Numbered from the stretch's first letter, positions 177-14,455 are shown. The stretch: DNA of 14,455 nucleotides from a virus (UHGV-0102464); one strand, 5' to 3'. Notes: a model not told the origin generated them from the letters alone. A program made the numbers and translations.

Positions 177-220
177 GAGAAGCAAGCGCAGCGGCTTCGC
201 AGAGTTAGCCCTTGCTTCTC
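177..220. repeat. GC-rich inverted repeat (10-bp arms GAGAAGCAAG / CTTGCTTCTC, 24-nt spacer) within AT-rich non-coding flank
   Basis: Read directly: arms at 177-186 and 211-220 are exact reverse complements. No T-run follows on either strand, so it is not an obvious intrinsic terminator. Function unknown. Confidence 0.5.
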
Positions 221-930
221 TTATAATTGGCATTATTCATTCAAGAACAATAGGATCTTCGCTTGTACAAGCGAAGCTATAATAAAAACAATCAATTAAT
301 TATTTTAAAAGTATTAAACAAGAACCTATTGACATTCATAAAATACAAGTTATTTATAATGTATGCCATAAATAAAAAGTTTTATGTCATATGTATCCTG
401 CACTATGTGCAGTTAATGTACCACTTGTCCCATAGATGGGAATATTGGAAAGGTTACTTTGTTTTGAAGTAGCCTTTCGTCCTTCAATATTAACGATTAC
501 TTATTGCTATTACCAAGTCCAGTCGAATCGAAGAACATCTTTTATCTGAAACGACTCCTAATACCCGGTTAAAGCCACAATAACTCTCGCATACGTAGAC
601 CAAAGAAAAATTATGATATTAAATATGTGATTTTTTTTAGTGTTAAGTTGAATAATTAAATACTGGAGAGTTTTCTGTGCACTACCAATTGCTGGTTCAT
701 CTGTTCTGCCGCTGATGTTTCTGACGAATCTCCCGGTGACACAGAACTGTCCCTCTCTACCAGCCTTTATTCGACTCAATGTCCGGCTGCTGATACGCAG
801 TTATCCCTTCGTATCAATGACTGACACTTAAACGTAATGCTTTGGTTGCTGGCGTATCTGACAGCTTCTTCGGCGTGAAGGTCGTTGTGTAAGTATACTT
901 CTTGGTTTATTTAGGCTATATAAAACATGA

Positions 931-1827
931 CTATGACTTGCTGTTTTCAGTAAGAGTCTTATCATCCAAAGAATTTATTCTAGAAATTCTTTTTAACTCA
1001 TTAAGATAATCAACCTCGTTTTCTAAGAACCAATGAAGAACTTTAGAATTGCCAAGTAATTTATTAATATATGACTGGATTATAACGAATTTCAACATAT
1101 CTGAACCATACTCGGTTTGAAGCTTTTTCGTTTCTTCCGAAGTTGTTGCCATTTCTTGTTCCAGACGAAGTATGGTTTTTTTTATATCCTTTTTATAGGG
1201 AGTGTTTTTCCCTTTATTTACTATCATCGATGCCGGTGTTGCATCCAAGATGCTCATTGCAAATTTTTTACTATAATTATCAAAATTAATCATTGTACCG
1301 ACTGCTTCAATTTGGCGAATTGGCTTCATTTTCCTCAAAACGTCAAATGTAGCCTTAGGTATAGGTTTATCAGAAAGTTTCGCAATTACACTTGGATCTA
1401 TGCCGTTCATCACATTCGCTTTATCTTTTATGGCATCAACAGATATGCCCAAAGCAGCACTAAGTTTTTCAATTGATACTTTTGCCAGAGACTTAATTAT
1501 CATTCTATGTTCTTCAACTACATTTATATGATTCACTTGTTTGTTAGGAGTGAAAGCATCATCTATGCTCGAAAGTATACATGGGGCTTTTTCTATACCT
1601 AAGTCTTTTAAAGCCTCAACCCTTAAATGGCCATCAAGTATCTTAGTGACATCTTTATCTTTGTCATAGAATACTATTATTGGTTCAATAATACCTAAGC
1701 TTTCGATAGAGGTAACTATTTGATGATATTTATGGCTTCGCTTTACGTTTTCTAATAATTCCTTAGATGGAATTAACTTATTAGTTTCCAGGTAAATAAA
1801 ATTATCGCCAAAACGTATCTGAATCAT
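931..1827 (-). CDS. ParB/Srx-fold (ParBc-like) domain protein, 298 aa, paralog of the upstream gene
   Basis: ORF track 931..1827. The ATG at 1827-1825 overlaps the stop of the upstream gene (ATGA), indicating translational coupling. The N-terminal ~100 aa fit the ParB N-terminal pattern (..SIESLGIIEPIIVF..ILDGHLRVEALKDLGIEKAPCIL..), followed by an HTH-like stretch (KLSAALGISVDAIKDK). The C-terminal ~150 aa are unassigned. Very AT-rich. Confidence 0.7.
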   Translation of the reverse strand: MIQIRFGDNFIYLETNKLIPSKELLENVKRSHKYHQIVTSIESLGIIEPIIVFYDKDKDVTKILDGHLRVEALKDLGIEKAPCILSSIDDAFTPNKQVNHINVVEEHRMIIKSLAKVSIEKLSAALGISVDAIKDKANVMNGIDPSVIAKLSDKPIPKATFDVLRKMKPIRQIEAVGTMINFDNYSKKFAMSILDATPASMIVNKGKNTPYKKDIKKTILRLEQEMATTSEETKKLQTEYGSDMLKFVIIQSYINKLLGNSKVLHWFLENEVDYLNELKRISRINSLDDKTLTENSKS

Positions 1828-2719
1828 TTTAATACCTCTTTGTTTACTGGGGTTAATATCTGAGATGGTAGTTCTGAAAGATTCTCTTGTTCAAGTATAT
1901 GTTGAAAGCTTTTATTCATCATTATGATGTTAAAAATCTCATTTACTATTAGTAGGTTGGTTTTTATGAATTTTGAGTTGTTATAAACAGATTTATGTTC
2001 AGCGATACTATTTTCATAAAGCTCAATCAACTCCTCTGCAGTCATCCTTTTTGATGGTTTGTGATAATAAAATCCGGCTGCTTTTGCACCTTTATTCCCA
2101 ACTGTTCTTTGATTTAGAATGTGTTTTATCTTTATAATGTCCCGACTTTTTATTAATTTTTTATCATATGCTTCGGTAAGAATATCTTGTGCTTCCTCAG
2201 TTTCACATCTTGCAAATTGCACTGCGAGATACAGAGGCAAATTACCCCGTTCGACTGCTGAGAGAAGTTTATGCTCTCCCTTATCAAGTAGCATATTAAT
2301 ACTGCTCACCCAGTTCGATGAATATCCAGTAATCTCACTTATTTCGGAGTCTGAAAGTCCTCTGATTTTCATGTCTTTAATCACCTGTAATAACTCATTA
2401 GAACGTGGTCTTCTCCTTGCAATGTTTTCAACTAAACTCATAACGTAAGCATCTTCTTCTGATACATCTCTTATAATTGCTGGAATAATAGTTTCACCTA
2501 ATGCAACGAGAGCCTCTATTCTCCCTTGACCACAAATTAAAGCATATTTGAAATCGCCTTCATCAATAGCTCTTACGCTTATAGGCTTGCTTAATCCTCT
2601 TTTTTTATGCTTTCCTTTATTTCTTCATGCACTAACTTATTTCTTGTTCGTGGGTTAAGAAATTTTATTTTTGCAATCTCAATTTGAATTATTGGGAATT
2701 CATTTTTTTCAGGCAGCAT
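1824..2719 (-). CDS. ParB/Srx-fold (ParBc-like) domain protein interrupted by a frame change at an A7 homopolymer; full length (~298 aa) only with a -1 frameshift or a 1-nt tract length change
   Basis: The track ORF 1824..2441 (205 aa) begins MSLVENIARRRP.., which is the middle of a ParB domain. ParB homology continues upstream of that ATG in the same frame (RGLSKPISVRAIDEGDFKYALICGQGRIEALVALGETIIPAIIRDVSEEDAYV) up to a stop at 2627-2625, with no in-frame start. A second register begins at ATG 2719-2717, with a GAGGG Shine-Dalgarno about 6 nt upstream and overlapping the last codons of the recombinase gene. It reads MLPEKNEFPIIQIEIAKIKFLNPRTRNKLVHEEIKESIKK and then stops at 2593-2591. The two registers meet in the A7 run (T7 at 2600-2606 on the + strand). 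The joined protein aligns colinearly with the downstream paralog. Confidence 0.6.
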
Positions 2720-4265
2720 ATAGTTCCCTCACTTTCATGCGAGTAATAATTTGTAGAAGTTTATCAAGATTATCAAATCTATAGAGATCTAATCGAATGT
2801 TGTTTGTTTCCGTCATGCACATTTTATTATATTCGTTTTCAATCTTTGGTATGATATAAAAATCAAGAGGTGAAATATTTTGTGAATTCATTCGTATAAC
2901 AATTGTTATGTCTGCTTTCTGTGAGTTATCAAACCGGACTTTCCATCTAAGTTTACCTGATTTCATATGTATGCATTTAGTAACAAGGACGGAAATTAAA
3001 AACTCATCATTGATGTAAAGCATTGGGGCATATTTATACTCGTCTATATGACAGTTACTTTTTAAAATTTCACCCTTAAAATCCTCAATTATCTCTGAGT
3101 GAAATGATCTTAGTGCTTCATTTATTTTGAGATAGCTGTAATCATGTTCTGGCTTATAACCAATCAAAGTATATGCTCTTAAAAGACCACCAAATCGGGT
3201 TCTATAAACAGAAGATGAAGGGCCTGTATCATCTTCATCAATGATAAAGCCTGATAGTTTTCCATTAGATTCTAATTTTTGTTTTAGTTTTTCTAATAGA
3301 TCTTCATTAGTCAAATGAATGGATCGGAGCTGAATTATTTCTTGAGCTTTATTGTGTTTTTTCTTTGAAATAATAGGTTTATATGCCTTGTCACATCTAA
3401 CCCATTCATGTTTGGGGTTTTTTACAAGCCTACTTTTTAATTTAGATGAGGTTTTGTTATATATGTTGTTTCCAATATATTTTTCATTTGTCAAAATTTG
3501 ATGTATTTTTGCACGAGTCCATAATGTTCCATTTTCTGCAGGTATGTTCTGTTCATTTAATCTCTCAGCAATAATGAATTCTGGGACGTTATTATCTATA
3601 AAGAGATCATATATTCTATTTACAATTTTTATTTCATTTTTTGGTCCCGGAATTAATATTACCCTATCTGTTTGAATACTCTTTCTTTTGCGGAAACTCA
3701 ATATTTCTTTAGCTATGCCATTTTCGTCTACTAAAAGACGTCTCAGCCCATAACCAGCCATACCGCCTTGATGATAACCAAGCTTTATTAAATTTACTTG
3801 CCCTATAAATACCTTTTCAGATAAATTCCTGCTGTGATATGCAGCACTAGATCTTTTTATATTCAGTATAACAGAGGACTCTAAAGGGAAATCTTTAGTG
3901 GGTATAGGTTCGGAACAATATATAAGATCTACACCATTTCTCTCAAATAGAAAGGAATAATATGCCGCTTCATCACTATTTTGAAAACGACCAAAACGGC
4001 TCACATCATAAAATAATACAGCCTGTATATCTATTTTCTTTTGTTCTACATCGCTAAGTAACTGCTGCAAAGAATGCCTGCCTACGATACTGACTCCGCT
4101 CTTACCTGCATCATCGTAGGTATAAGCGATTTCCATATTGTTCTTTTCAGCATAATCTTTGATATATTCGGACTGATTATGTAAAGAATATTGCTGATGG
4201 TCGGTAGACATCCTCAAGTACTGCGCGACCCTAACTCTATGATTTTTGTCATTTTCGCTAGCCAT
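2709..4265 (-). CDS. Large serine recombinase (resolvase/invertase catalytic domain + recombinase domain; C-terminal half divergent)
   Basis: 518-aa ORF with an AGGT Shine-Dalgarno about 7 nt upstream of ATG 4265-4263. N-terminus carries the serine-recombinase catalytic motifs: VAQYLRMSTDHQ (Y-x-R-x-S-T-x-x-Q with nucleophile Ser), DDAGKSG, and VLFYDVSRFGR. A recombinase-domain pattern follows (..LIPGPKNEIKIVNRIYDLF..IAERLNEQNIPAENGTLWTRAKIHQILTNEKYIGNNIY..HEWVRCDKAYKPIISKKKHNKAQEI). I saw no CxxC zinc-ribbon pairs in the C-terminal ~220 aa. Confidence 0.85.
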   Translation of the reverse strand: MASENDKNHRVRVAQYLRMSTDHQQYSLHNQSEYIKDYAEKNNMEIAYTYDDAGKSGVSIVGRHSLQQLLSDVEQKKIDIQAVLFYDVSRFGRFQNSDEAAYYSFLFERNGVDLIYCSEPIPTKDFPLESSVILNIKRSSAAYHSRNLSEKVFIGQVNLIKLGYHQGGMAGYGLRRLLVDENGIAKEILSFRKRKSIQTDRVILIPGPKNEIKIVNRIYDLFIDNNVPEFIIAERLNEQNIPAENGTLWTRAKIHQILTNEKYIGNNIYNKTSSKLKSRLVKNPKHEWVRCDKAYKPIISKKKHNKAQEIIQLRSIHLTNEDLLEKLKQKLESNGKLSGFIIDEDDTGPSSSVYRTRFGGLLRAYTLIGYKPEHDYSYLKINEALRSFHSEIIEDFKGEILKSNCHIDEYKYAPMLYINDEFLISVLVTKCIHMKSGKLRWKVRFDNSQKADITIVIRMNSQNISPLDFYIIPKIENEYNKMCMTETNNIRLDLYRFDNLDKLLQIITRMKVRELYAA

Positions 4266-4435
4266 GCACGAAACCTCATGGGTGATTCAATACAATGTAG
4301 AGGATAAAATTGATCAAATTTTAACCGAATTCAACTGTTTTATCATTGATTAGAGCGAATTTGGTAGATCTTCGAGGTGTATGATAATCGAGAAGAGATG
4401 TGAATTATTTAGCTGATATGACCGACAGCTTTCGT

Positions 4436-4485
4436 TATGTGGACTCAATGTCCCCATTTGTAAATGGCTATGCTTAGTCCACATA
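4436..4485. repeat. Nested palindrome: 10-bp inverted repeat TATGTGGACT / AGTCCACATA enclosing inner palindrome CCATTT-GT-AAATGG
   Basis: Read directly: outer arms at 4436-4445 and 4476-4485, inner palindrome at 4454-4467. It lies in the intergenic region between the integrase stop (4548) and the recombinase start (4265). No flanking T-run, so a protein-binding or recombination site is more likely than a terminator. Confidence 0.5.
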
Positions 4486-4547
4486 GGTTAATGGTGTGAT
4501 TATTAATTCTTTAACTAAATCAAGATAGTTAATCCATCATGGGAGAG

Positions 4548-5777
4548 TTATGCGGCAATAACTTTGCATTTTTGAGACGAAACATAGTCACTCCACCATT
4601 GCATGAGAACCACCCGTTCAGTGAGATACTCTGCACGATTGTAGGCTGCAATTATTTCATCTTTCTTCGAGTGGGCAAGGGCGGCTTCTAAGACATCAGT
4701 CCTAAACTTGCCAGACTCCTCAGCAGCCGTTCTAGCAATGGATCGCATACCGTGAGCTACAAGCTCACCTCCGAAGCCCATACGGATTATGGCCGCATTA
4801 GCTGTTTGTTCATGCATGTGATTGAGTGGAGCTTTGATACTGGGGAACACCCACTCTCTATGCCCGCTGATGACTTTCATTAAATCCAAAACTCGCAAAG
4901 CTTCTTTGCTCAGTGGAACTTTGTGAGGCTTCTTCATTTTCATAAACTCCGCCGGGATGTTCCACATGCCAGTTTCAATATCAATATCTGACCATCTTGT
5001 GCGAACAGCTTCACCTGGGCGAACCCATGTGAGAAGTTGCCACTCAATCAGTAGCCTTGTTTCCAAACGGATAGAAGCATTGTTTAGAGCAACCAAGAAG
5101 CGAGGGAGTTCGGAAGGGGGTAATGCTGGCATATTCTGTTTTTTTGGCTTGCTGAACCGTTGCCCCAGGTTGTCTGCCGGGTTGAATTCTATGAGTTCTT
5201 CTGTTGCTGCATAGCGGAAAATTTCATTCAGGCGGGATATGATGCGGCGAAGTGTTTCAAGGACACCTCGTTTTTCTATGGGTTCTAAATGCTGTTTAAG
5301 CATTTTAGGGCGAATCTCCTTAATTGGGGTATCACCCAATGTGGAAAAGATATTTCTCTCTAGGCTTCGCCAGATGTCGTTAGCATGATCTTGGGAGATG
5401 CCTGACGTTTTGACTTTCTCATCAAGCCACTTCTTGGCTACTGCTTGAAATGTATGTTCCGTGGCATCTTTCAGTGCATTGGCTTTTTGGTTGTTATGAA
5501 CTTGGGGGTCTATACCATTTGTAAGCAACGACAAGTATTCATCACGTAAAGCTCGTGCCTTCGCAAGTGTAAGGTGAGGATAGGTTCCTAAGCTCACCTT
5601 AGTTCGCTTTTTGGTCACAGGCACTGCATATCTGAAATACCAATTTTTCTTCCCTCCCTTCGCCAGGGGAGCGATTCGCAACAGCAAACCATCGCCGTCA
5701 AAAAGGTTAACCTCTTTTTCGGCAGGTTTGGTGCTTTTGATTTCAGTGTCAGTGAGCTTCTTAGCGATTTTGGCCAT
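4548..5777 (-). CDS. int: Tyrosine site-specific integrase, P4/IntA (CP4-57-like) family
   Basis: The track ORF runs to 5858, but the conserved N-terminus MAKIAKKLTDTEIKSTKPAEKEVNLFDGDGLLLRIAPLAKGGKKNWYFRY (arm-type DNA-binding domain typical of P4-like integrases) starts at ATG 5777-5775, so I call that start. The C-terminal catalytic region carries the HxxR box (LVAHGMRSIARTAAEE) and the catalytic tyrosine context (IIAAYNRAEYLTERV). Confidence 0.9.
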   Translation of the reverse strand: MAKIAKKLTDTEIKSTKPAEKEVNLFDGDGLLLRIAPLAKGGKKNWYFRYAVPVTKKRTKVSLGTYPHLTLAKARALRDEYLSLLTNGIDPQVHNNQKANALKDATEHTFQAVAKKWLDEKVKTSGISQDHANDIWRSLERNIFSTLGDTPIKEIRPKMLKQHLEPIEKRGVLETLRRIISRLNEIFRYAATEELIEFNPADNLGQRFSKPKKQNMPALPPSELPRFLVALNNASIRLETRLLIEWQLLTWVRPGEAVRTRWSDIDIETGMWNIPAEFMKMKKPHKVPLSKEALRVLDLMKVISGHREWVFPSIKAPLNHMHEQTANAAIIRMGFGGELVAHGMRSIARTAAEESGKFRTDVLEAALAHSKKDEIIAAYNRAEYLTERVVLMQWWSDYVSSQKCKVIAA

Positions 5778-5875
5778 GTTTGGGACCCTCGATTTTAGGA
5801 CCCATCTTCGTGGGTCCCATTCAGGGTGCCATAACTCGTAGTTCTCAGCAATTCTCACTAGACTACAATAGACGT

Positions 5876-5908
5876 AAAAAAGCCCGCAGAGCTTGTGCTG
5901 TGCGGGCT
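5876..5908 (-). terminator. Rho-independent terminator (minus strand) between the ssrA stub and the integrase
   Basis: On the minus strand: 8-bp stem AAGCCCGC/GCGGGCTT-type (plus 5881-5888 pairs with 5901-5908) with a 12-nt loop, followed by a U-run (A-run 5876-5880 on the plus strand). Confidence 0.55.
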
Positions 5909-5943
5909 TAGTAGACTTTACTGAACTTCAGTACATCAATATT

Positions 5944-5978
5944 TGGTGGAGCTGGCGGGAGTTGAACCCGTGTCCGAA
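5944..5978 (-). other. ssrA: 3'-terminal fragment of ssrA (tmRNA): attachment-site core copy, not an intact gene
   Basis: The reverse complement of 5944-5978 reads TTCGGACACGGGTTCAACTCCCGCCAGCTCCACCA. As I recall it, the 3' end of enterobacterial tmRNA is ..TTCGGACGCGGGTTCAACTCCCGCCAGCTCCACCA, so this matches with one mismatch. Similarity stops immediately upstream, and no tmRNA 5' end (GGGGCUG.. acceptor strand) or tag-peptide region lies within 400 nt, so it is a stub. Confidence 0.75.
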
Positions 5979-6303
5979 TAATGCTTAACCTATTGAATAT
6001 TAATGTTTTGTCTTTTTTGAAAGGCCTCAAGTGCATTTTACGTGCATATCGTGGTCCCTCTAACGTCCTGATTCCGTCCAACATTTTGAAATACTCACGA
6101 CGCTACAGAGCTGCTGAAATGGCGGTTTTCCCGTCGTATTCAGCCAGGTATTTACCGTAATTGCGGAACAGCATTTCCGGCCCTTTATGCCCCATCTGCC
6201 CGGCAAGCCAGAAAAGGTTTACGCCCTGGCTAATGTGTCTGGTGGCGAATGTGTGGCGGGTCTGGTACGGGGTACGGTAGCGACACTTTTTTGCACGTTA
6301 GTG

Positions 6304-6333
6304 TTGACTTTGCATAAAAATGTCCTGTATGCT
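6304..6333 (+). promoter_or_regulatory. Sigma70-like promoter (TTGACT -35, 18-bp spacer, TATGCT -10); candidate late promoter pR'-like
   Basis: TTGACT at 6304-6309 and TATGCT at 6328-6333. It is followed about 35-60 nt downstream by an intrinsic terminator, the arrangement of lambdoid pR'/tR' upstream of lysis genes. Confidence 0.5.
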
Positions 6334-6366
6334 TTCCATCGTGGGATATTACGCCTACACGACATC

Positions 6367-6392
6367 AAACCCGCCTCAGCGCGGGTTTTTTT
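6367..6392 (+). terminator. Rho-independent terminator (tR'-like) ending a very short transcript
   Basis: Stem CCCGC(6370-6374)/GCGGG(6381-6385) with loop CTCAGC, followed by T7 (6386-6392). Confidence 0.7.
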
Positions 6393-6456
6393 ATTTCCAG
6401 CAAGGTTTTTCTTCAATGCGTTTGTTATGTTGTGTTTTTTAACTGAGGGTCAGTTG

Positions 6457-6651
6457 ATGAGCGCAGATGAAAACTTGTTGAGTAAAATTCAGGAAGTACG
6501 GACGGTAGAGGATGTGGAGCAAGTCAATTTGGGCCTTTCTAAAGGCTGGGTGATTTTGAAGATCACCGAGAGCTCTACAGTCTGGGAAGATGGCAGCAAA
6601 AGCAGCCTTGTTACATATCACATGGGCAAGCCGAAGGCATTGCCGGTCTGA
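6457..6651 (+). CDS. Hypothetical small protein (64 aa)
   Basis: ATG 6457 with a GAGGG Shine-Dalgarno 7 nt upstream. The track ORF 6187..6651 extends upstream across the promoter and terminator, so the upstream part is rejected. No recognisable motif. Confidence 0.45.
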   Translation: MSADENLLSKIQEVRTVEDVEQVNLGLSKGWVILKITESSTVWEDGSKSSLVTYHMGKPKALPV

Positions 6652-6687
6652 TCAAGCCTTACCAAATCAAAAATTTCAATCATATAT

Positions 6688-6713
6688 AGGCCACCTCACG
6701 GTGGCCTTTTTTG
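6688..6713 (+). terminator. Rho-independent terminator upstream of lysis cassette 1
   Basis: AGGCCACC (6688-6695), loop TCAC, GGTGGCCT (6700-6707), then a T-run to 6712. Confidence 0.75.
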
Positions 6714-6761
6714 TTTCCCCTCAACCTTCTGAGAGGGTCAACAGCAATAAGAGGGGGCAAA

Positions 6762-7166
6762 ATGTCCGCAGAACCGATATCTGCAACGGTAACGGCAGGC
6801 GTGGCCGCCGGCACTACCGGAATCACCTTCGCGACGATGTTTCCAGAAGCGACACCCGCTGTAATGCTTTGCTCACTTGCCGGGGCTGCTCTTTATGTCC
6901 TGAGCAGTGAAGACCACAAAATCTGGAAGCAGATACTGTTCGCGCTCATCTCATTCATTGGTGGAGTCTACTGCGCCGGAACAGCATCTGAAATCATCGC
7001 TGCGCTAATCAATGCGGCATTAAGTCACCTTTCTCCTCCAGTTTCCGTGAAGGTATCTCCAGCTATGGGTGCCCTGCTGGCTTCATCGGTTTCTGTCACC
7101 ATCCTGGCTCGCATCCTCAAACGGTCGAAGACAGGAGACTTACCCGGATTGAAGGGGGAAGAATGA
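6762..7166 (+). CDS. Putative holin / lysis-associated membrane protein (134 aa)
   Basis: ATG 6762 with a GAGGGGG Shine-Dalgarno. Hydrophobic segments (..AGVAAGTTGITFATMF.., ..ILFALISFIGGVYCAGTA.., ..MGALLASSVSVTILARIL..). First gene of a lysis cassette; stop overlaps the next start (ATGA). Confidence 0.5.
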   Translation: MSAEPISATVTAGVAAGTTGITFATMFPEATPAVMLCSLAGAALYVLSSEDHKIWKQILFALISFIGGVYCAGTASEIIAALINAALSHLSPPVSVKVSPAMGALLASSVSVTILARILKRSKTGDLPGLKGEE

Positions 7167-7444
7167 CGTGGCAAACACTGATCCTGAACATTAACGCTGT
7201 TGCATGCATCCTCATCACCATACGCCTGATGTTCTTCAGGAAGCGGAGCTTACGGCGCCGCCGTCTGATGGAGTTTCTGGCCTATGGGCTGATCCTCGCT
7301 CCAGCGTTTACCGCTTTCCGCATCTGGCATGGTGATTACGTGCAGGTCGACTACGGAGAGTTGGTCGTCAACCTTGTTGTCTGCATAGCTGTATGGCGAG
7401 CACGTGGCAACATCGCAAGAATAGCAGGGGAAAGCACAACGTGA
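7163..7444 (+). CDS. Small membrane protein (93 aa), holin/antiholin-like
   Basis: ATG 7163 overlaps the upstream stop, with a GAAGGGGG Shine-Dalgarno. Two hydrophobic helices separated by a basic stretch (RKRSLRRRRL). Lies between the putative holin and the endolysin. Confidence 0.4.
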   Translation: MTWQTLILNINAVACILITIRLMFFRKRSLRRRRLMEFLAYGLILAPAFTAFRIWHGDYVQVDYGELVVNLVVCIAVWRARGNIARIAGESTT

Positions 7445-8070
7445 ACCAATCACAATTTCAAAAGGCGGCTGGCATTAGCGCCGGGCTCGCTTCGCGCTGG
7501 TTTTCGCATATCGATGCTGCAGTGAAGGAATTCGGCATAACCGCGCCGCTCGATCAGGCCATGTTTATCGCGCAGATGGGCCATGAGTCCGGCGGTTTCA
7601 CCCGGCTGGTGGAAAACCTGAACTATGCGGCAGAAAACCTGGTACCTACGTTCGGCAAGCATCGCATTACTGCGCAGCAGGCCGCCGCACTCGGCAGAAC
7701 GGCAACGCAACCGGCAAATCAGAAAGCGATAGCCAATCTGGTTTACGGCGGTGAGTGGGGCAAAAAGAACCTGGGCAACCAGGTTGCTGGTGATGGCTGG
7801 AAATATCGCGGCCGAGGCCTTAAGCAAATCACCGGGCTTAGCAACTATCGCAGTTGCGGCCAGGCTCTCAAACTGGATCTGGTTTCGTATCCAGAACTAC
7901 TGGAACGAGATGAATACGCTGCGCGCTCCGCCGCATGGTTCTACGTCTCGCACGGATGCCTGCTCCATTCAGGCGATGTGGAGCGCGTCACGCTGCTTAT
8001 CAATGGCGGACGTAACGGGCTGGATAAACGCCGCGCGCTGTTTAACCTGGCGAAGTCTGTGCTGGTGTGA
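7441..8070 (+). CDS. Endolysin, glycoside hydrolase family 19 (chitinase-like lysozyme)
   Basis: GH19 hallmark motifs: FIAQMGHESGGF and YRGRGLKQITGLSNYR (compare the GRGPxQ(L/I)(S/T)xNY motif of GH19 chitinases). Start placed at GTG 7441, which overlaps the upstream stop (GTGA); the alternative ATG 7393 lacks a Shine-Dalgarno. Confidence 0.8.
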   Translation: MNQSQFQKAAGISAGLASRWFSHIDAAVKEFGITAPLDQAMFIAQMGHESGGFTRLVENLNYAAENLVPTFGKHRITAQQAAALGRTATQPANQKAIANLVYGGEWGKKNLGNQVAGDGWKYRGRGLKQITGLSNYRSCGQALKLDLVSYPELLERDEYAARSAAWFYVSHGCLLHSGDVERVTLLINGGRNGLDKRRALFNLAKSVLV

Positions 8071-8077
8071 GGTCACT

Positions 8078-8347
8078 ATGGGATTAGAAACAATCGTCGG
8101 TATTGCTGCCCTGATAATGGCAGCTATCGCTGGTGCTTTTGGCATTGGTCATTCACGCGGCACCAGCAAAGCGGAAGCCAAAGCCGATCAGCAGCGCACT
8201 GAAGAACGTGCAACAGCTACTGAAGCTGTTGCTGAACGCCGGGTAGAGACAACAAAAGGAGCCAGGGATGTACAGCAAACTGTTAATCATCTTCCTGATG
8301 ACGATGTTGACCGTGAGTTGCGCGAAAACTTTACCCGCAAAACCTGA
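8078..8347 (+). CDS. Rz-like inner-membrane spanin (i-spanin) component, copy 1
   Basis: ATG 8078, 8 nt after the endolysin stop. N-terminal transmembrane helix (IVGIAALIMAAIAGAFGIG) then a charged helical region. The track ORF 7751..8347 is the same frame extended upstream into the endolysin and is rejected. Assignment is by position and architecture. Confidence 0.6.
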   Translation: MGLETIVGIAALIMAAIAGAFGIGHSRGTSKAEAKADQQRTEERATATEAVAERRVETTKGARDVQQTVNHLPDDDVDRELRENFTRKT

Positions 8348-8489
8348 ATTAACGGACACAGCCTGTGACTGGGTGGACATTATCTACCTCACTGAACACG
8401 ATATTGCCGTGCTGGATAAGCAGACGAAGCGGGACATATTGGTGCACAATAAATCAGTGCAGGCTAACTGTGCAAAAAAAATAAATTGA
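8268..8489 (+). CDS. Rz1-like outer-membrane lipoprotein spanin (o-spanin), overlapping the 3' end of the Rz-like gene in another frame, copy 1
   Basis: ATG 8268 with an AAAAGGAG Shine-Dalgarno. Signal peptide plus lipobox-like ..MTMLTVSCAK; several Cys. The ORF begins inside the Rz-like gene and extends past it (P2 lysB/lysC-like overlap). Its sequence is conserved in copy 2. Confidence 0.6.
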   Translation: MYSKLLIIFLMTMLTVSCAKTLPAKPELTDTACDWVDIIYLTEHDIAVLDKQTKRDILVHNKSVQANCAKKIN

Positions 8490-8590
8490 AAATGAGAAAT
8501 GAAAGTAGTAAATATGTGCCAAGCTGTGATGAAACCAGCAATGAAGCACGTTCTTTAATCCGCATTCTCTGAAAAAGAGAAAGAATTATA

Positions 8591-8618
8591 AGCCTCGGTT
8601 TAATACCGGGGCTTTTTT
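8591..8618 (+). terminator. Rho-independent terminator after lysis cassette 1
   Basis: AGCCTCGG (8591-8598), loop TTTAATA, CCGGGGCT (8606-8613), then a T-run to 8618. Confidence 0.7.
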
Positions 8619-8768
8619 GTATCTGCATTTCACCGCGCACCGCAGCGCATTCAATCACGTCGAACCCAACCTTTTGGAATGAGCCGTTGAGGAGTCAGTT
8701 AGTGCTGGCGAGCCTCGACGGGCTGATTTCCTATGCGACAAAGGTTCATTTCAAAGAAGGTAAACGCA

Positions 8769-9356
8769 ATGCACGACTCAACAAGCGGGTTGGTCTTTGG
8801 AGTTGGCAAACTCGATGTACACCCCGTTATCAATAAAGGGGTAAAACTCAGGTCATACAGAGTATGGTTTGGGATGCTGAAAAGATGCTACGGAAAGGGA
8901 ACGGCATTTAAAAGTGAATACCAAGGATGCTCAGTCGATGAGCAATGGCACAAGTTCAGTAATTTTCAGCAATTTTACGACAAGAATTACTTCGAAGGCG
9001 CCGAGTTAGACAAGGATTTGCTTTATCTGGGTAATAAAGTTTACTCAAAAGATAGGTGCGTGTTCATCCCGTCATTCCTCAACGCCTTTATCACTGTTAG
9101 GCCGCCAAGAAACAACAACCTTCCGATTGGCGTATACCAAGTTAGCAACAGCCGGAAGTATCAATCAGAAATACAAGTTAATGGTGAAAGAAAATATCTA
9201 GGACTCTTTGAAGATCCGCATGAAGCTCACTCCGCTTGGTTTAATGAAAAGCTGAATATGGCAATTTCCTACAAAGAGTTGTGCGATTCTCTGCACCCTG
9301 ATTTGTATGGCGGACTCATAACAAAAATAGAAAGCATGCGAGTCTATCCGGATTAA
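8769..9356 (+). CDS. Hypothetical protein with AP2-like DNA-binding domain in C-terminal half
   Basis: ATG 8769 with a GAAGG Shine-Dalgarno 8 nt upstream (the track start 8733 has none). The C-terminal stretch IGVYQVSNSRKYQSEIQVNGERKYLGLFEDPHEAHSAWFNEK resembles the AP2 domain found in phage HNH/AP2 proteins. The N-terminal half (..SYRVWFGMLKRCYGK..) is unassigned. Confidence 0.5.
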   Translation: MHDSTSGLVFGVGKLDVHPVINKGVKLRSYRVWFGMLKRCYGKGTAFKSEYQGCSVDEQWHKFSNFQQFYDKNYFEGAELDKDLLYLGNKVYSKDRCVFIPSFLNAFITVRPPRNNNLPIGVYQVSNSRKYQSEIQVNGERKYLGLFEDPHEAHSAWFNEKLNMAISYKELCDSLHPDLYGGLITKIESMRVYPD

Positions 9357-9481
9357 TAAATTAATAATTCTACATTTTCAGGGCCCTTGGGAATCACCCT
9401 CGACGCTTTGTTGGTAAATCAGCCCGACGGCCCTGACCTTCTCACACACAGCTTCCCGATCTTTCATCGGAGGCGGTAACT

Positions 9482-9793
9482 ATGGCTAAGCGTATGCAAG
9501 ACAAAGAGAGCATTGCCGGGATGTCCTGGCTGGTTCTGCTGATCATTGCTTGCTGGGGTGGACTTGTCCGCTACCTGATAGATGTGAAGCAGAGCAAGGC
9601 AACATGGAGCTTGATCAATGCTCTTGCCCAAATGGTGGTTTCAGGGTTTACCGGCGTTATTGCTGGCCTGGTGAGCATTGAAAGCGGACTGAGCATTTAC
9701 ATGATTCTGGCAACCGCGGGGATAAGCGGCGCGATGGGCTCCGTAGCGCTCACGTATTTCTGGGAACGAATCACCGGAGTGAAAGCACAATGA
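9482..9793 (+). CDS. Holin (103 aa), lysis cassette 2
   Basis: ATG 9482 with a GGAGG Shine-Dalgarno 8 nt upstream. Hydrophobic helices; stop overlaps the endolysin start (ATGA). Confidence 0.6.
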   Translation: MAKRMQDKESIAGMSWLVLLIIACWGGLVRYLIDVKQSKATWSLINALAQMVVSGFTGVIAGLVSIESGLSIYMILATAGISGAMGSVALTYFWERITGVKAQ

Positions 9794-10329
9794 CAGCAGA
9801 CCAGATTATCGAGGGGATCCTCGGCAAGGAGGATGGTTATGTCGATCATCCGTCGGATAAAGGCGGGCCGACCCGCTGGGGCATCACGCAGACCACCGCC
9901 CGTGCACATGGCTACACCGGTGATATGCGGAACCTGCCCAGGGAAACAGCAAAGCAAATCCTGCTGAGCGATTACTGGACCGGCCCCCGGTTTGACCAGG
10001 TGGCAGCTCTATCTACGTTACTGGCAGATGAGCTTTGCGACACTGGCGTGAACATGGGGCCATCTGTAGCCAGTAAGTTTTTCCAGCGCTGGCTGACCGC
10101 AATGAATATGCGCGGAAAGCTGTATCCCGATCTGATTCCGGATGGCGCCATTGGTCCCCGAACCATCACCGCGCTTAAGGGATACCTTTCCGCCCGCGGG
10201 AAAGAGGGTGAACAGGTTCTGTTGCGTGCGCTGAACTGCAGCCAGGGTGCCAGATACCTCGAACTGGCGGAGGGCCGCGAAGCCAACGAGGATTTTCTCT
10301 ACGGCTGGGTTAAGGAGCGTGTCCTGTGA
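9790..10329 (+). CDS. Endolysin, glycoside hydrolase family 108 N-terminal domain + peptidoglycan-binding C-terminal domain
   Basis: N-terminal EDGYVDHPSDKGGPTRWGIT matches the GH108 signature (EGGYVDDPxDxGGxTxxGIT). C-terminal ..IPDGAIGPRTITALKGYL.. resembles the PG-binding-3 type domain. Confidence 0.8.
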   Translation: MTADQIIEGILGKEDGYVDHPSDKGGPTRWGITQTTARAHGYTGDMRNLPRETAKQILLSDYWTGPRFDQVAALSTLLADELCDTGVNMGPSVASKFFQRWLTAMNMRGKLYPDLIPDGAIGPRTITALKGYLSARGKEGEQVLLRALNCSQGARYLELAEGREANEDFLYGWVKERVL

Positions 10330-10670
10330 AGATGATCATTTTCGCTTTGCTTGTGCTGGTGGCTGTGCTCGTTCTGTTACTTCTGCGCAAATATACCCGG
10401 CTGGAGTTCGTAGGGCATGCCAGCTTGCTGCTGAAAACGTGGTCTGTAAAGCTGGGAGCTATCGGCGCGCTGGTTGGTGTATGGGCGCAGTCGTTCCCGG
10501 ATGCTGCGCTGCACGCCTGGGCGGTGCTGCCGCCGGATATCAAAAACATCCTGCCGCCAAACATCGTTGCGTTGATTAGCCCTGCGCTGGTGGTGCTGGC
10601 CGTACTATCGCAATACGTACGCCAGCCAGCATTGAAAGAAAAGGCCGACGAACTGAAGGAGCAGCAATGA
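10326..10670 (+). CDS. Membrane protein between endolysin and spanins (LysA/antiholin-like position)
   Basis: Start GTG 10326 (overlaps the endolysin stop) or ATG 10332, with an AAGGAG Shine-Dalgarno at 10310-10315. Strongly hydrophobic (IIFALLVLVAVLVLLLL.., ..LVALISPALVVLAVL..). Stop overlaps the Rz-like start (ATGA). Confidence 0.5.
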   Translation: MKMIIFALLVLVAVLVLLLLRKYTRLEFVGHASLLLKTWSVKLGAIGALVGVWAQSFPDAALHAWAVLPPDIKNILPPNIVALISPALVVLAVLSQYVRQPALKEKADELKEQQ

Positions 10671-10942
10671 GCTTTGAAATTATCGCGGGACTGGTGGTCG
10701 TCATCCTGGGTGCTATTGCTGGCGCGTTCGGCATTGGTCATGCTCGCGGGGCCAGTAAGGCGAAAGCCAAAGCTGATCAGCAACGTACCGAAGAGAACGC
10801 CGCTGCTACTGTCGCCGCGGCAGAACGCCGTGCTGAAGTCACGAAAGGGGCCAGCGATGTACAGGAAGACGTTAAGCGTATGGGCGATGACGATGTTGAT
10901 CGGGAGTTGCGCGAAAAGTTTACCCGCCCCGGTAGTCGTTGA
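10667..10942 (+). CDS. Rz-like i-spanin component, copy 2
   Basis: ATG 10667 with a GAAGGA Shine-Dalgarno. Roughly two-thirds to three-quarters identical to copy 1 by eye (AIAGAFGIGH..KADQQRTEE..DDDVDRELRE.FTR conserved). Confidence 0.6.
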   Translation: MSFEIIAGLVVVILGAIAGAFGIGHARGASKAKAKADQQRTEENAAATVAAAERRAEVTKGASDVQEDVKRMGDDDVDRELREKFTRPGSR

Positions 10943-11081
10943 CACGGCCTGCAGCTGGGTGCGGATCATCTACCTGACTGACCACGATATCGATGTGTTG
11001 GATAAGCAGACCAAGCGCGACATTCTGGCGCACAACAAAGCAGTGCAGGCCAACTGCCAGAGCATTACCCCTACTCATTGA
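10857..11081 (+). CDS. Rz1-like o-spanin lipoprotein, copy 2 (overlapping and extending past the Rz-like gene)
   Basis: ATG 10857 with an AAAGGGG Shine-Dalgarno. MYRKTLSVWAMTMLIGSCAK.. then DTACSWVRIIYLTDHDIDVLDKQTKRDILAHNKAVQANC, closely matching copy 1. The track ORF 10674..11081 is the same frame with a spurious upstream extension. Confidence 0.6.
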   Translation: MYRKTLSVWAMTMLIGSCAKSLPAPVVVDTACSWVRIIYLTDHDIDVLDKQTKRDILAHNKAVQANCQSITPTH

Positions 11082-11366: not shown

Positions 11367-11470
11367 CCCCACCAAGGGATAAACCAGCCTTCATCCCCAC
11401 GTGAGGATATTACAGAAGCCACTGACTGAGTGGCTTAGATAATGTTCCCGACATCGCACAGAGGTAAAAC

Positions 11471-11716
11471 ATGGCAGAGATCACACCGGCAGAACAGATT
11501 CGACTGAATCTGCTTTCCACCCTGAACTACGACACCGCGGCCGCTGCTAAGGCGATTGAGTTCGTCCAGGATAGCCAGCTCAAATATCAGCTGTTCATCC
11601 AGCAGTACAACCGCGTGACAACTGAATCAGAAGTTGTGGCGCGGACCATCAAAGCGGTTCAGGAGTCGGCGGAAGCGTTAGCGCTGTTTGATACCGCGGC
11701 TGAGCAGGCCAGTTAA
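11471..11716 (+). CDS. Hypothetical protein (81 aa)
   Basis: ATG 11471 with a GAGGT Shine-Dalgarno at 11461-11465. No recognisable motif. Confidence 0.5.
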   Translation: MAEITPAEQIRLNLLSTLNYDTAAAAKAIEFVQDSQLKYQLFIQQYNRVTTESEVVARTIKAVQESAEALALFDTAAEQAS

Positions 11717-11719
11717 GGC

Positions 11720-11755
11720 ATTACAGCAGGCATTCACGTAGTGCCTGTGATAATG
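11720..11755 (+). repeat. 36-bp repeated element, copy 1 (ATTACAGCAGGCATTCAC-GT-AGTGCCTGTGATAATG) with internal inverted repeat and extended -10-like TGTGATAAT
   Basis: Read directly; 34/36 identical to the copy at 12061-12096. Contains CAGGCA..TGCCTG inverted arms and TG-n-GATAAT. Confidence 0.6.
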
Positions 11756-12025
11756 TTAAAGCTCCTGTATAAGGGGCAGTTGTATGATGTCATGCAACGA
11801 AGCAACCAAACTATGGAAAGTCCGGGTAATGGTTTTGGAGTGAATGTGACGTTTCGCAACGATATAGATGGCTACTTTTTCCTGTTGCTTAGTATGTGGC
11901 CAGTGCTAATGGTTTTATTCCTGGGATTGTCCTCTGCATTTTACGGTGTGTTAATGCCTAAAACGGCAATTGCTTGTCTGGTGATCGCTGCCGCTGTGGG
12001 TACCGTTGGGTGGTTCTATGGATAG
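11741..12025 (+). CDS. Hypothetical small membrane protein (start uncertain)
   Basis: The track ORF begins at GTG 11741 inside the repeat; the true start may be an internal ATG. C-terminal part is hydrophobic (FFLLLSMWPVLMVLFLGL.., ..IACLVIAAAVGTVGW..). Confidence 0.4.
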   Translation: MPVIMLKLLYKGQLYDVMQRSNQTMESPGNGFGVNVTFRNDIDGYFFLLLSMWPVLMVLFLGLSSAFYGVLMPKTAIACLVIAAAVGTVGWFYG

Positions 12026-12060
12026 GCATCCTGGAAACATTTGGTCAGGTTATAGACTGT

Positions 12061-12096
12061 ATTACAGCAGGCATTCACTGAGTGCCTGTGATAATG
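12061..12096 (+). repeat. 36-bp repeated element, copy 2 (ATTACAGCAGGCATTCAC-TG-AGTGCCTGTGATAATG)
   Basis: Differs from copy 1 only at the 2 central bases; lies about 40 nt upstream of the AT-rich moron start. Confidence 0.6.
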
Positions 12097-12134
12097 ATAA
12101 ATTACTTACTCACACCTTTTGTGAGGTAAGAGAA

Positions 12135-12431
12135 ATGAAGCATCTTGTACATTCTTTTTTATCTGTATCATCTGACGGTGCAACTATTAAGTACGAAATA
12201 TATTCTCAAGATCAGGAATTAGGACATTTAAAGAAGATCCCGGAGGGTAGTTGTCAGATCATTAAGTCGATATATCAAAAGGATAGCAATAGTTTTAAGT
12301 TAATAGACTTAAACGTAAATGTTGAGGATTTATTTAAGGCAAATCAACCCAAGCCAAATACTTGGTACTCGGATGGGCAAGACCGTGTAAATCTCGACAT
12401 GCTTATCAATTATCTTGATAACTTAAAATAA
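12135..12431 (+). CDS. AT-rich moron-like gene, hypothetical protein (98 aa)
   Basis: ATG 12135 with a GAGGT Shine-Dalgarno about 7 nt upstream. Composition is markedly more AT-rich than flanking phage genes. Preceded by the repeat/promoter-like element and followed by a strong intrinsic terminator. No recognisable motif. Confidence 0.6.
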   Translation: MKHLVHSFLSVSSDGATIKYEIYSQDQELGHLKKIPEGSCQIIKSIYQKDSNSFKLIDLNVNVEDLFKANQPKPNTWYSDGQDRVNLDMLINYLDNLK

Positions 12432-12450
12432 TTGTAAGTTGAAATCATTT

Positions 12451-12478
12451 AGACCTCGAATCCCGAGGTCTTTTTTTT
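12451..12478 (+). terminator. Rho-independent terminator after the moron
   Basis: AGACCTCG (12451-12458), loop AATCC, CGAGGTCT (12464-12471), then T8 to 12478. Confidence 0.8.
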
Positions 12479-12487
12479 GGAGGTTTT

Positions 12488-12721
12488 ATGCGCCTGACTG
12501 TTCTCAGTAACGACCCTGGTGAACGTATATGGCCTAGCCGTGAACGCATAACGGTGTACCTCAACGGTGTCGAGGTCAAGTACGTTTTTACCGCCGATGA
12601 TCAGAAGGGCGAAGTTATCGCTGCTACGCTCGACTGTCTTGGCAACCTCATAGCCGAGAATGGCGAGATTAAGCGCCAGAAGCTGTTAGGTCAGGTGAGG
12701 ATAGAGCGATGCCCGCGCTAA
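12488..12721 (+). CDS. Hypothetical protein (77 aa) immediately upstream of and overlapping the HNH endonuclease gene
   Basis: ATG 12488 with a GGAGG Shine-Dalgarno just upstream; overlaps the HNH start by 13 nt. Confidence 0.5.
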   Translation: MRLTVLSNDPGERIWPSRERITVYLNGVEVKYVFTADDQKGEVIAATLDCLGNLIAENGEIKRQKLLGQVRIERCPR

Positions 12722-13059
12722 TACCCCGCGCCTGCCGTAAGCGTGGATGTCCTGGAACTACCACAGACCGCTTAGGCTACTGCGAGAAGCACCGCAACGA
12801 AGGCTGGCAACAGCATCAACAGGGAAAGAGTCGCCACGAGCGTGGCTACGGTAGCCAGTGGGATATCAGGCGTGCGCGCATCCTGAAACGCGACAACCAT
12901 TTATGCCAGAACTGCCTTCGCAGCGGGCGAGCTGTCGCAGCAAAGACGGTTGACCACATCAAGGCCAAGGCTCATGGGGGTACCGATGACGATTCGAACC
13001 TCGAAAGCCTGTGCTGGCCTTGCCATCGAACGAAAACCGGGCGCGAACGCATAAAGTGA
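12709..13059 (+). CDS. HNH endonuclease (phage packaging-associated type)
   Basis: Cys/His-rich: ..CRKRGCPGTT..GYCEKH.. and the HNH core ..VDHIKAKAHGGTDDDSNLESLCWPCH... AGGTGAGGA Shine-Dalgarno before ATG 12709. Position directly upstream of the terminase small subunit is typical. Confidence 0.85.
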   Translation: MPALIPRACRKRGCPGTTTDRLGYCEKHRNEGWQQHQQGKSRHERGYGSQWDIRRARILKRDNHLCQNCLRSGRAVAAKTVDHIKAKAHGGTDDDSNLESLCWPCHRTKTGRERIK

Positions 13060-13215
13060 TATCGATTCTCATTTGAGGCGAGGCAGAGGGGGCGGGGTCA
13101 AATCCCTGACGGCAAAGGCCAAAAGGACCGCCGCCTAACCTTTTTTCACACCGCCGCAGGTTAGAAAACTTTTTTTTGGGGTCCCCCATCCAATGATTAA
13201 TAGGAGTTTTCGATT

Positions 13216-13713
13216 ATGCCAGGACCACCGAAAACCCCGACACATCTGGCTTTAGTGAAGGGGAACCCATCCAAGCGCCCGATCAATAAGAACGAGCCAA
13301 AACCCCCGTCAGGGGTCCCCCCAATACCGAAACATTTCGATAAACAGGGTAAGTACTGGTTCAAACGGATTGGTGAGGAACTTGATGCCGTCGGCGTGTT
13401 GACCACGCTGGATGCTAAAGCGCTGGAGTTGTTGATAGAAGCCTATGTTGAATACCGGCATCACTGCGACACGCTTGATCGTGAAGGTTACACCTATGCC
13501 GTCTACAGCGAAGATGATTCAGATGAAGGAGGGGAGCGGGAAATCAGAATGATCAAACCGCACCCTGCAGCAGTCATGAAGGCTGACGCGTGGAAACGGA
13601 TCAGAGCGATGCTGAGCGAATTCGGCATGACACCTGCCAGCCGATCAAAGGTTGGTGCAAAAGACCCGGCAGAAGCCGACCCACTGGAAGAATTTCTTAA
13701 AAAGCGCAAATGA
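13216..13713 (+). CDS. Terminase small subunit (P27-family-like)
   Basis: ATG 13216 with a TAGGAG Shine-Dalgarno. ..LDAKALELLIEAYVEY.. pattern and placement between the HNH gene and the large terminase gene. Confidence 0.75.
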   Translation: MPGPPKTPTHLALVKGNPSKRPINKNEPKPPSGVPPIPKHFDKQGKYWFKRIGEELDAVGVLTTLDAKALELLIEAYVEYRHHCDTLDREGYTYAVYSEDDSDEGGEREIRMIKPHPAAVMKADAWKRIRAMLSEFGMTPASRSKVGAKDPAEADPLEEFLKKRK

Positions 13714-13716
13714 TGA

Positions 13717-14455
13717 ATGGCAACCGTTGCAGATGGATTCCGCTACGCCGAGCGCGTGGTATCTGGCGATATCGTTGCTGGCGAACTGGTGCGTCTTGCG
13801 TGCCAGCGGTTCTTTCATGATTTAGAGCACGGCCCGGAGCGCGGTGTTTATTTTGATGAAGGCCGCGCCCAGCACGTTCTCGATTTTTATAACTTCGTCC
13901 CCCATGTGAAGGGGCACTTGACCGGCAAGCCGATCGAGTTGATGGACTGGCACACCTTCATCCTGATTAACCTTTTCGGGTTTGTCGTCCCGCTGATAGA
14001 TGAAATAACGTTTGAGAGCATTCTTGACGACGATGGCGACCCCATGTTTGTGCGTCGCTTTCGTACCGCCTATGACGAAGTAGCGCGTAAAAATGCAAAA
14101 TCAACGCTTTCGTCTGGCATCGGGCTTTATATGACTGGTGCCGACGGTGAGGGTGGTTCTGAGGTTTATTCCGCAGCAACAACCAGGGATCAGGCCCGCA
14201 TCGTGTTTGATGATGCGAAGCGCATGATTAAGCTGGCTCCGAAAACACTGGGCCGGTTGTTTGGTAGTAACAAGTTGAATATTCACCAGGAGCGGACGGG
14301 TTCAAAATTCGAACCTGTAGCCAGTGATGCGAATAACCTCGACGGCCTTAATATTCACTGCGGGATCGTTGATGAGCTTCACGCACATAAAACCCGTGAC
14401 GTCTGGGAAGTTCTCGAAACGGCAACCGGCGCCCGACTACAGTCTCTTATCTTCG
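13717..14455 (+). CDS. Terminase large subunit, 5' portion (open to window end; absent from ORF track because no stop is reached)
   Basis: Translated by hand from ATG 13717: MATVADGFRYAERVVSGDIVAGELVRLACQRFFHDLEHGPERGVYFDE... with no stop to 14455. Deviant Walker-A-like ..VARKNAKST.. and Walker-B-like ..HCGIVDELHAH... The adjacent ATG 13713 is in a frame that terminates after 36 codons. Confidence 0.8.
   Translation, partial: MATVADGFRYAERVVSGDIVAGELVRLACQRFFHDLEHGPERGVYFDEGRAQHVLDFYNFVPHVKGHLTGKPIELMDWHTFILINLFGFVVPLIDEITFESILDDDGDPMFVRRFRTAYDEVARKNAKSTLSSGIGLYMTGADGEGGSEVYSAATTRDQARIVFDDAKRMIKLAPKTLGRLFGSNKLNIHQERTGSKFEPVASDANNLDGLNIHCGIVDELHAHKTRDVWEVLETATGARLQSLIF

Follow-up and report, generated by a model that had tools for sequence, protein, structure and literature searches.

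Introduction

UHGV-0102464 is a viral DNA of 14,455 nucleotides (nt), and the whole of this stretch is called the window here. Between positions 6762 and 11081 the window holds two lysis cassettes, one behind the other on the same strand. How do two such cassettes come to stand in a single late region? An earlier note, made from the sequence alone, described two complete, non-identical cassettes with a diverged duplication of the overlapping spanin pair, and suggested recombination between two phages or capture of a module. Our leading answer, preferred tentatively and by a narrow margin, is that two unrelated prophages have been joined here through their late regions, in a cell, by one homologous crossover within the 35 nt common to both partners (8693 to 8727). 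The most serious competitor is a joint made by the assembler. On the first view the tandem is what exchange at the conserved leader of a dead prophage left as a by-product; on the second it is an artefact of assembly.

The window is a complete metagenome-assembly contig, identical across all 14,455 bases (NODE_1799_length_14455_cov_4.318958, ENA ERZ1303435; L174 among the fetched loci). Its gene map combines an open reading frame (ORF) listing with Pfam, NCBIfam and PHROG profile searches. The comparison sets comprise INPHARED phages, complete Escherichia coli genomes (n = 5,426), GTDB species representatives, IMG/VR and JGI metagenomes; in addition, seven window proteins served as queries for exact-protein look-ups in an assembly collection. 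Gene content, the lineage of each half and the position of the switch between them are established directly; that the switch took place in a cell, and how the cassettes would be expressed, we infer.

A single switch between two lineages

The unifying observation is one clean change of lineage between the cassettes. In an alignment of the window with L010, a relative of the remnant type, and L006, one of the phage type, 39 consecutive discriminating sites (8600 to 8692) are of the remnant type, and the following 39 (8728 to 8800) are all of the phage-B type.

8693 to 8727, no strand: crossover interval, with the remnant-A lineage on its left and the phage-B lineage on its right, from the alignment of discriminating sites

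Left of 8692, the window is 99.9% identical (7 differences) to its remnant relatives, which many Escherichia-type isolate assemblies contain; over the longer interval from 53 to 8771 it is 99.8% identical to five isolate-derived loci (L009 to L013). Right of 8728, it is 98–99% identical to Klebsiella-type prophage late regions. The exactly shared stretch measures 35 nt against every fetched relative, including the closer copy that lies after Q, the late antiterminator gene.

The two lysis cassettes

Cassette 1 and its terminator comprise the following features.

6762 to 7166, + strand: holin (Phage_holin_8; PF16931, E=1e-13; phrog_198, E=1.5e-33)
7163 to 7444, + strand: second holin-family protein (Phage_holin_3_7; PF05449, E=3e-17; phrog_217)
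7441 to 8070, + strand: GH19 endolysin, 209 amino acids (aa), GTG start (PF00182; phrog_181, E=9e-86)
8078 to 8347, + strand: i-spanin, 89 aa, with an N-terminal transmembrane segment (phrog_1026, E=2e-32)
8268 to 8489, + strand: o-spanin, 73 aa, lipobox LTVSC, overlapped architecture (phrog_1275, E=3.5e-30)
8590 to 8614, + strand: strong intrinsic terminator 3′ of the cassette, a ten-pair stem followed by a T run

Cassette 2 lies on the same strand.

9482 to 9793, + strand: holin of the LydA type (PF16083, E=2e-21; phrog_785)
9790 to 10329, + strand: GH108 endolysin with a PG_binding_3 domain (PF05838, E=1e-22; PF09374, E=4e-26)
10326 to 10670, + strand: DUF7940 membrane protein with two hydrophobic segments (PF25612, E=1.6e-14; phrog_1356, ‘holin’)
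10667 to 10942, + strand: i-spanin, 91 aa (phrog_1026, E=5e-32)
10857 to 11081, + strand: o-spanin, 74 aa, lipobox LIGSC, overlapped architecture (phrog_1275, E=7e-34)

Both cassettes are ORF-intact, and their coordinates agree almost to the base with the map in the earlier note. Compared with sequenced phages, no lysis ORF is truncated in either, so that neither cassette is degenerate. The product of 7163 to 7444 had been listed as a small membrane protein; its position stands, and the match to PF05449 makes it a second holin-family protein. The endolysins do come from unrelated families, GH19 (PF00182) and GH108 (PF05838). For the former, the PF00182 match reaches 29.7 bits against a cut-off of 25.5 and covers a partial stretch of the model (103–156 of 232); the protein has no hydrophobic segment. 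A longer ORF starting at 7393 is unlikely to be the true gene, and relatives of cassette 1 have the 209-aa form called as a gene. The GH108 endolysin scores 80.9 bits (PF05838) and 91.5 bits (PF09374).

In each cassette, the holin or holins would permeabilise the inner membrane, the soluble GH19 or GH108 endolysin would degrade the wall, and the overlapped pair of i-spanin and o-spanin would break the outer membrane, if these proteins act as their families do. Both cassettes are of known kinds, the layout of the spanins is ordinary, and no new lysis mechanism is involved.

The first holin of cassette 1 has 94% aa identity to phage AsXd-1 and the Phage_holin_3_7 protein 100%; in cassette 2, the LydA-type holin and the i-spanin are each 100% identical to those of Klebsiella phage ST11-VIM1phi8.2. 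Cassette 1 is itself a mosaic: its holins and endolysin are 94–100% identical at the protein level to those of AsXd-1, an ‘Aeromonas’ phage (L002), its spanins 64–66%, and the spanins have 94% nt identity to those of E. coli VTB97448v. In that strain (L008, 5766–7364), holins of the cassette 1 type are joined to a GH108 endolysin. Free reassortment of lysis modules is also seen in L166 (3486–5195), where the exact o-spanin of cassette 2 is joined to a GH19 cassette, and in one HK97-like late region (L024 to L033) that carries GH19, GH108 or lambda-type cassettes in different genomes.

The spanin pairs and the direct repeat

The two spanin regions (8078 to 8489 and 10667 to 11081) are 72.3% identical over about 412 nt, with a longest exact run of 14 nt. 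The i-spanins share 69% and the o-spanins 72% of their residues, which bears out the earlier observation of pairs that are homologous in both frames and form a repeat of about 400 bp. In the 200-nt flanks, identity is 48–50%, as in shuffled sequence (47.5 ± 1.2%), which shows the repeat to be real and its limits to be exactly those of the spanin genes.

A direct repeat of this kind, spanning both overlapping frames, is what a local tandem duplication of the lysis cassette, followed by divergence and replacement of one endolysin, would leave behind. However, the copies are 72% identical to each other and 99.9% (L010) and 98.9–100% (Klebsiella phage) identical to two external lineages, identity falls to the random level directly outside the spanin genes, and the same spanin family is joined to GH19, GH108 and other cassettes in many phages. 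Duplication in situ is refuted by this comparison, the copies not being each other's closest relatives, and we attach next to no probability to it. As judged from their sequences, the spanin regions are homologous modules of two phages and not copies made in place, because each half of the window is far nearer to an external lineage than the copies are to each other. What holds of the earlier proposal is the joining of material from two phages, now placed within a 35-nt crossover interval; the ‘diverged duplication’ is to be dropped, since the halves are 98.4–99.9% identical to different external lineages and the spanin regions 72% to one another.

Each i-spanin has a single N-terminal hydrophobic segment and no other, with a hydropathy peak at residues 1–26 in the 89-aa protein and 1–27 in the 91-aa protein. 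The o-spanins (MYSKLLIIFLMTMLTVSC and MYRKTLSVWAMTMLIGSC) both match a PROSITE-type lipobox pattern with the cysteine at position 18, and the lipobox is kept in 25/25 distinct o-spanin homologues from the fetched loci; by this pattern, the Rz1-like frames do carry the lipoprotein signal that the earlier note wished to see checked. Both o-spanin genes have their start within the i-spanin gene, which they overlap in a different frame by 80 and 86 nt, and continue for 142 and 139 nt beyond its stop codon. In cassette 2, the true o-spanin start is ATG 10857, not TTG 10674.

The earlier note correctly saw that the Rz1-like frame runs past the Rz-like stop; the oddity that it implied is not there. 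The overlapped architecture is the commonest of the three known (228/528 systems), and the HK639/mEp390 family has already been catalogued (PMC6139136); P2 lysB/lysC were the genes on which the architecture was originally defined (Kongari et al. 2018, PMC6139136). Compared with the HK639 pair, the spanin proteins of the window show 65–75% aa identity, with 75% for the i-spanin of cassette 1. Like the HK639/mEp390 spanins, they combine a short i-spanin that has an N-terminal transmembrane segment with an o-spanin lipoprotein gene that starts within the i-spanin gene and ends beyond it, and they occupy the final place in the lysis cassette. There is no substantive difference from that family; the window simply has two such pairs, one per cassette. 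No Pfam or NCBIfam model matches the spanins, which are recognised by PHROG only (phrog_1026 and phrog_1275).

The left half: a dead prophage at ssrA

The DNA in front of cassette 1 has the following features.

5943 to 5978, − strand: 3′ end of ssrA (transfer-messenger RNA, tmRNA), a copy of the attachment site between island and prophage remnant, by direct sequence reading
6103 to 6286, − strand: C-terminal 61-codon fragment of a tyrosine integrase, remnant of prophage A (translation ends RHTFAT...NYGKY)
6278 to 6286, no strand: deletion junction at which the integrase fragment is fused to post-Q DNA (match to the UMNK88 integrase up to 6283, post-Q match from 6278)
6304 to 6333, + strand: late-promoter-like site TTGACT-18-TATGCT, from a consensus scan
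6367 to 6388, + strand: intrinsic terminator of a pR′/tR′-type unit, from the same scan
6457 to 6651, + strand: 64-aa ORF, called as a gene in L010, L012 and L013
6688 to 6707, + strand: terminator 3′ of the 64-aa ORF

Positions 137 to 5978 are 99.8% identical to an ssrA-adjacent island found in hundreds of E. coli genomes, whose content includes two ParB-like genes, a serine recombinase and a P4-type integrase. In E. coli records, the ssrA annotation extends to the base that corresponds to 5978. Beyond it comes the integrase fragment; E. coli UMNK88 and E94 have the integrase at full length, and its 3′ end there matches the fragment at 95.9–98.6% identity. In UMNK88, a distance of 8.7 kb that includes Q separates the end of the integrase gene from the post-Q DNA; in the window the two adjoin, with a microhomology of 2–6 nt at the deletion junction (6278–6286). 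The segment from 6278 to 6394 is 99% identical to the UMNK88 DNA directly 3′ of the Q stop codon, and phage CharmingMan has the same promoter downstream of its Q. The antiterminator itself is missing, with 0/8 Q types detectable anywhere in the window.

Without integrase, early genes and Q, the prophage at the ssrA attachment site to which cassette 1 belongs is dead. The left partner of the joint (up to about 8692) is this remnant: it keeps the last 61 codons of its integrase, and the deletion that begins there reaches as far as the final base of Q. The late promoter and terminator, the 64-aa ORF, cassette 1 and the conserved leader are what was left over.

The remnant is a common one. More than 500 blocks of the assembly collection contain the exact i-spanin protein of cassette 1, and the five contexts shown (L009 to L013) share the island, the integrase fragment, the junction, the 64-aa ORF and cassette 1. 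The scar between integrase fragment and post-Q DNA is found in the isolate assemblies L009, L010, L012 and L013. In one complete E. coli genome, the left flank of L009 to L013 falls within the gab–ssrA interval; beyond cassette 1 these loci depart from the window and carry a Rha-like fragment, a DUF2514 Rz-like ORF, cold-shock and Gns genes, and lambda-type tail genes. In L011, an insertion sequence element cuts into the first holin. A second cassette was at first suspected in L010, where a 165-aa ORF was taken for a lysozyme; the sequence disagrees, and only the DUF2514 Rz-like ORF is present there.

Two known kinds of system offer comparisons. Defective prophages are a source of DNA for temperate phages, which take it up by recombining where homology is short or diverged (De Paepe et al. 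2014, PMC3945230). The window shares with such cryptic-prophage systems (PMC3945230) an intact lysis cassette in a decayed, integrase-less remnant at a tRNA-like attachment site, and a junction with foreign phage DNA at short homology; it differs in that two homologous functional modules are stacked instead of one replacing the other, and in being known from a single metagenome contig. With the late operons of lambdoid phages and prophages (the UMNK88 prophage, HK639, ST11-VIM1phi8.2) it shares the promoter–terminator unit, 99% identical to the UMNK88 post-Q DNA, as well as the gene order and families of both cassettes. Unlike them, the window lacks Q and the early genes and has two cassettes, not one, behind one promoter.

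The right half: a Klebsiella-type late region

Apart from cassette 2, two features characterise the right half.

8769 to 9356, + strand: 195-aa cargo gene, HNH-endonuclease-like by PHROG only (phrog_953, E=1e-69)
12709 to 13713, + strand: HNH endonuclease and P27-family small terminase, start of the packaging genes of phage B (phrog_144, phrog_83)

Positions 9374 to 11057 are 98.5–98.9% identical to Klebsiella prophages and phages, and positions 11410 to 14455 are 98.4–98.6% identical to HK97-like prophages in genomes of 5.2–5.6 Mb outside the complete E. coli set. The HNH/terminase region is syntenic with the HK97-like prophages L024 to L033. Exact matches to the holin, endolysin, o-spanin and a 98-aa protein give about 30 distinct contexts in which cassette 2 or its neighbours occur, and in these a single cassette follows directly after Q. 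The right partner (from about 8728) is a lambdoid/HK97-like late region of the Klebsiella type, which in the phage has the order Q, leader, 195-aa cargo gene, cassette 2, HNH and terminase. Of the two cassettes, cassette 1 is of the resident remnant lineage, and cassette 2 is foreign to this locus.

The cargo gene also has its usual place after Q. The exact cargo protein is encoded in 23 other contigs, in each of them with Q upstream, and in all other informative contigs the gene lies 3′ of Q, sometimes with tRNA genes between. Its start in the ORF listing (8733) is probably wrong, because a conserved Shine–Dalgarno site precedes ATG 8769. In relatives of phage B, the tRNA genes between Q and the leader or cargo gene are Thr-Arg-Gly (L006, 118–354) or Phe-Asn (L116, 5740–5896); unlike L006 and L116, the window has none at that position. 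Searches with ARAGORN and Rfam find no tRNA gene and no complete tmRNA gene within the window.

The nature of the cargo gene suggests a further route to the tandem, in which its HNH-like product cut near the leader and repair copied the gene together with cassette 2 into the remnant. The gene lies directly right of the crossover, its protein matches PHROG 953 (‘HNH endonuclease’) at profile positions 185–389 of 420, and cargo genes in the same position in CharmingMan and RothC are annotated as HNH or homing endonucleases. Against such homing capture, neither Pfam nor NCBIfam matches the cargo protein or detects a nuclease domain in it, and the single visible junction resembles a simple homologous exchange. 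Co-conversion tracts of more than 5 kb are, moreover, unusual for homing. We regard this route as highly improbable.

Further right, between the DUF2560 gene and the HNH/terminase genes, lies the ORF of the 98-aa protein (12135–12431), which is low in G+C (about 36%). More than 900 blocks contain the exact protein, and its place in the HK97-like prophages never varies.

A conserved leader at the joint

The crossover interval falls within a non-coding element that recurs in many phages.

8607 to 8771, + strand: conserved non-coding leader (nhmmer E=5e-56, with a profile from 92 distinct copies)

The leader begins in the T tract of the terminator of cassette 1; about 50 nt further on follow an imperfect hairpin of about 90 nt, a Shine–Dalgarno site and the ATG at 8769. 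In an alignment of 128 copies, conservation exceeds 90% per column and collapses on both sides. A 24-mer of the leader is present in at least 120 IMG/VR contigs, and homologues occur in 80 phage records, including P22, ES18, BTP1, Stx2 phages and HK544; copies are also present in L004, L008, L010 and L164. The genes that follow vary (Rha-like, KilA-N, HNH or the 195-aa gene). At neither gathering nor permissive thresholds does an Rfam family match the leader.

The copy in P22, found by blastn, provides a link to a described RNA. P22F is a recently reported small non-coding RNA of 89 nt in P22, whose 3′ end lies 6 nt before rha (PMC13397905). Positions 8678 to 8759 of the window are identical to the published P22F at 74/84 positions, and the match ends 9 nt before ATG 8769. 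Both elements share a position right before the start codon of the downstream gene and after the lysis genes, and both have a predicted hairpin (PMC13397905); the window copy precedes the HNH-like cargo gene, and the P22 copy precedes rha. In 74 distinct copies, 96–100% of the cells of the predicted hairpin pair. Compensatory change is seen at only about two pairs, covariation being sparse because the copies are about 90% identical. Additional nhmmer matches at first suggested several leader copies per phage; these proved to be reverse-strand self-matches of the hairpin.

In phages, the leader is found directly after Q, after the lysis genes, or in both places, and two copies bracket one lysis cassette in L040 and L046. 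The homology needed for a crossover is therefore available. A broader proposal is that the leader goes beyond a regulatory sequence shared by chance and is a portable linker bracketing lysis cassettes (post-Q and post-spanins, as in L040 and L046), through which lambdoid and P22-like phages swap or stack whole lysis modules, the window being a captured single-crossover intermediate between phages of two host genera. This wider generalisation is doubtful. The most useful by-product of the analysis is the leader element itself, with its two alternative positions around lysis cassettes.

Recombination in the cell or in the assembly

Two routes are conceivable for the favoured crossover in a cell. 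An incoming circular phage could have recombined into the remnant, or a deletion could have occurred between the directly repeated leaders of neighbouring prophages.

The competing explanation is an assembly chimera: an Escherichia/Shigella-type strain with the cassette 1 remnant and a Klebsiella prophage B were both in the sample, and the assembler joined them through the shared leader, so that each cassette would be real and the tandem would exist in no cell. This is a substantial possibility, and several observations weigh on its side and against a crossover in a cell. The whole window is one low-coverage metagenome contig (k-mer coverage 4.3, from ENA). Its halves are taxonomically discordant, with Escherichia-type host affinities on the left and Klebsiella-type on the right; among the 5,426 complete E. 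coli genomes, cassette 2 finds a best match of 90.5% and the right half one of 90.5–94%, and the cargo gene is absent. The recombinant junction is a singleton that was not found in IMG/VR or JGI metagenomes or in any of 114 fetched endolysin-carrying loci, and the Q gene upstream of the cargo gene in 23/23 other contigs fits this picture. The true parents in the sample may share more than 35 nt; post-Q leaders nearer to the remnant type are known from L079. Finally, a switch exactly within sequence common to both parents is also expected of a de Bruijn-graph chimera.

The last point is equally expected from homologous recombination. Against a chimera stands the length of the shared core: at 35 nt it falls short of a typical read and of the final k-mer common in assembly (55), so that reads should resolve it, if the assembler behaved as usual. 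E. coli prophages with the same module order also exist, at 91% identity, which makes such phages possible in Escherichia. On present data, a crossover in a cell and an assembly chimera cannot be separated.

Searches for a second instance of the tandem gave a uniform result. It was not found in INPHARED phages, in the complete E. coli genomes or in GTDB species representatives (queried with the cargo protein and with the integrase/late-promoter junction), and none of the 114 fetched loci has two endolysins. The exact-protein look-ups returned single-cassette contexts throughout, and a literature search for tandem or duplicated lysis cassettes gave nothing relevant.

Expression and significance

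From the only late promoter, transcription would meet three intrinsic terminators (at 6367, 6688 and 8590) before cassette 2. If the contig is real, these terminators and the absence of Q from the window would probably keep both cassettes silent, and only a Q of matching specificity acting in trans would relieve this. With such a Q, the cassettes would be co-transcribed and redundant.

A further idea is that the window represents a viable phage with a purpose-built double lysis cassette, for instance for differing host walls or for escape from an endolysin inhibitor. All ten lysis ORFs are intact, on one strand and downstream of one late promoter, and the two endolysins differ in mechanism (GH19 and GH108). 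However, the left partner is decayed, with a truncated integrase and neither early genes nor Q; the approximately 30 contexts of cassette 2 and the five shown for cassette 1 are all single-cassette; and a strong terminator and a cargo gene separate the cassettes. A dedicated double cassette is very unlikely.

If the joint arose in a cell, it is a base-resolved case in which an incoming phage and a dead prophage crossed over at a conserved intergenic sequence, and it indicates that module exchange can pass through a state of two stacked, intact lysis cassettes. It thereby bears on an old question of phage mosaicism, namely whether it originates at conserved linkers or through illegitimate joins at random places. 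Should the joint be an artefact, it shows that short conserved phage leaders can yield cross-genus chimeras in low-coverage metagenome contigs.

A frameshift in the ssrA island

Within the island on the left, the second ParB/RepB-like gene (1824–2719, − strand) has a 1-nt deletion at 2599 relative to L010. The resulting frameshift leaves a product of 205 aa and a 42-aa ORF instead of 298 aa, and could mark a real pseudogene or an error of low-coverage assembly.

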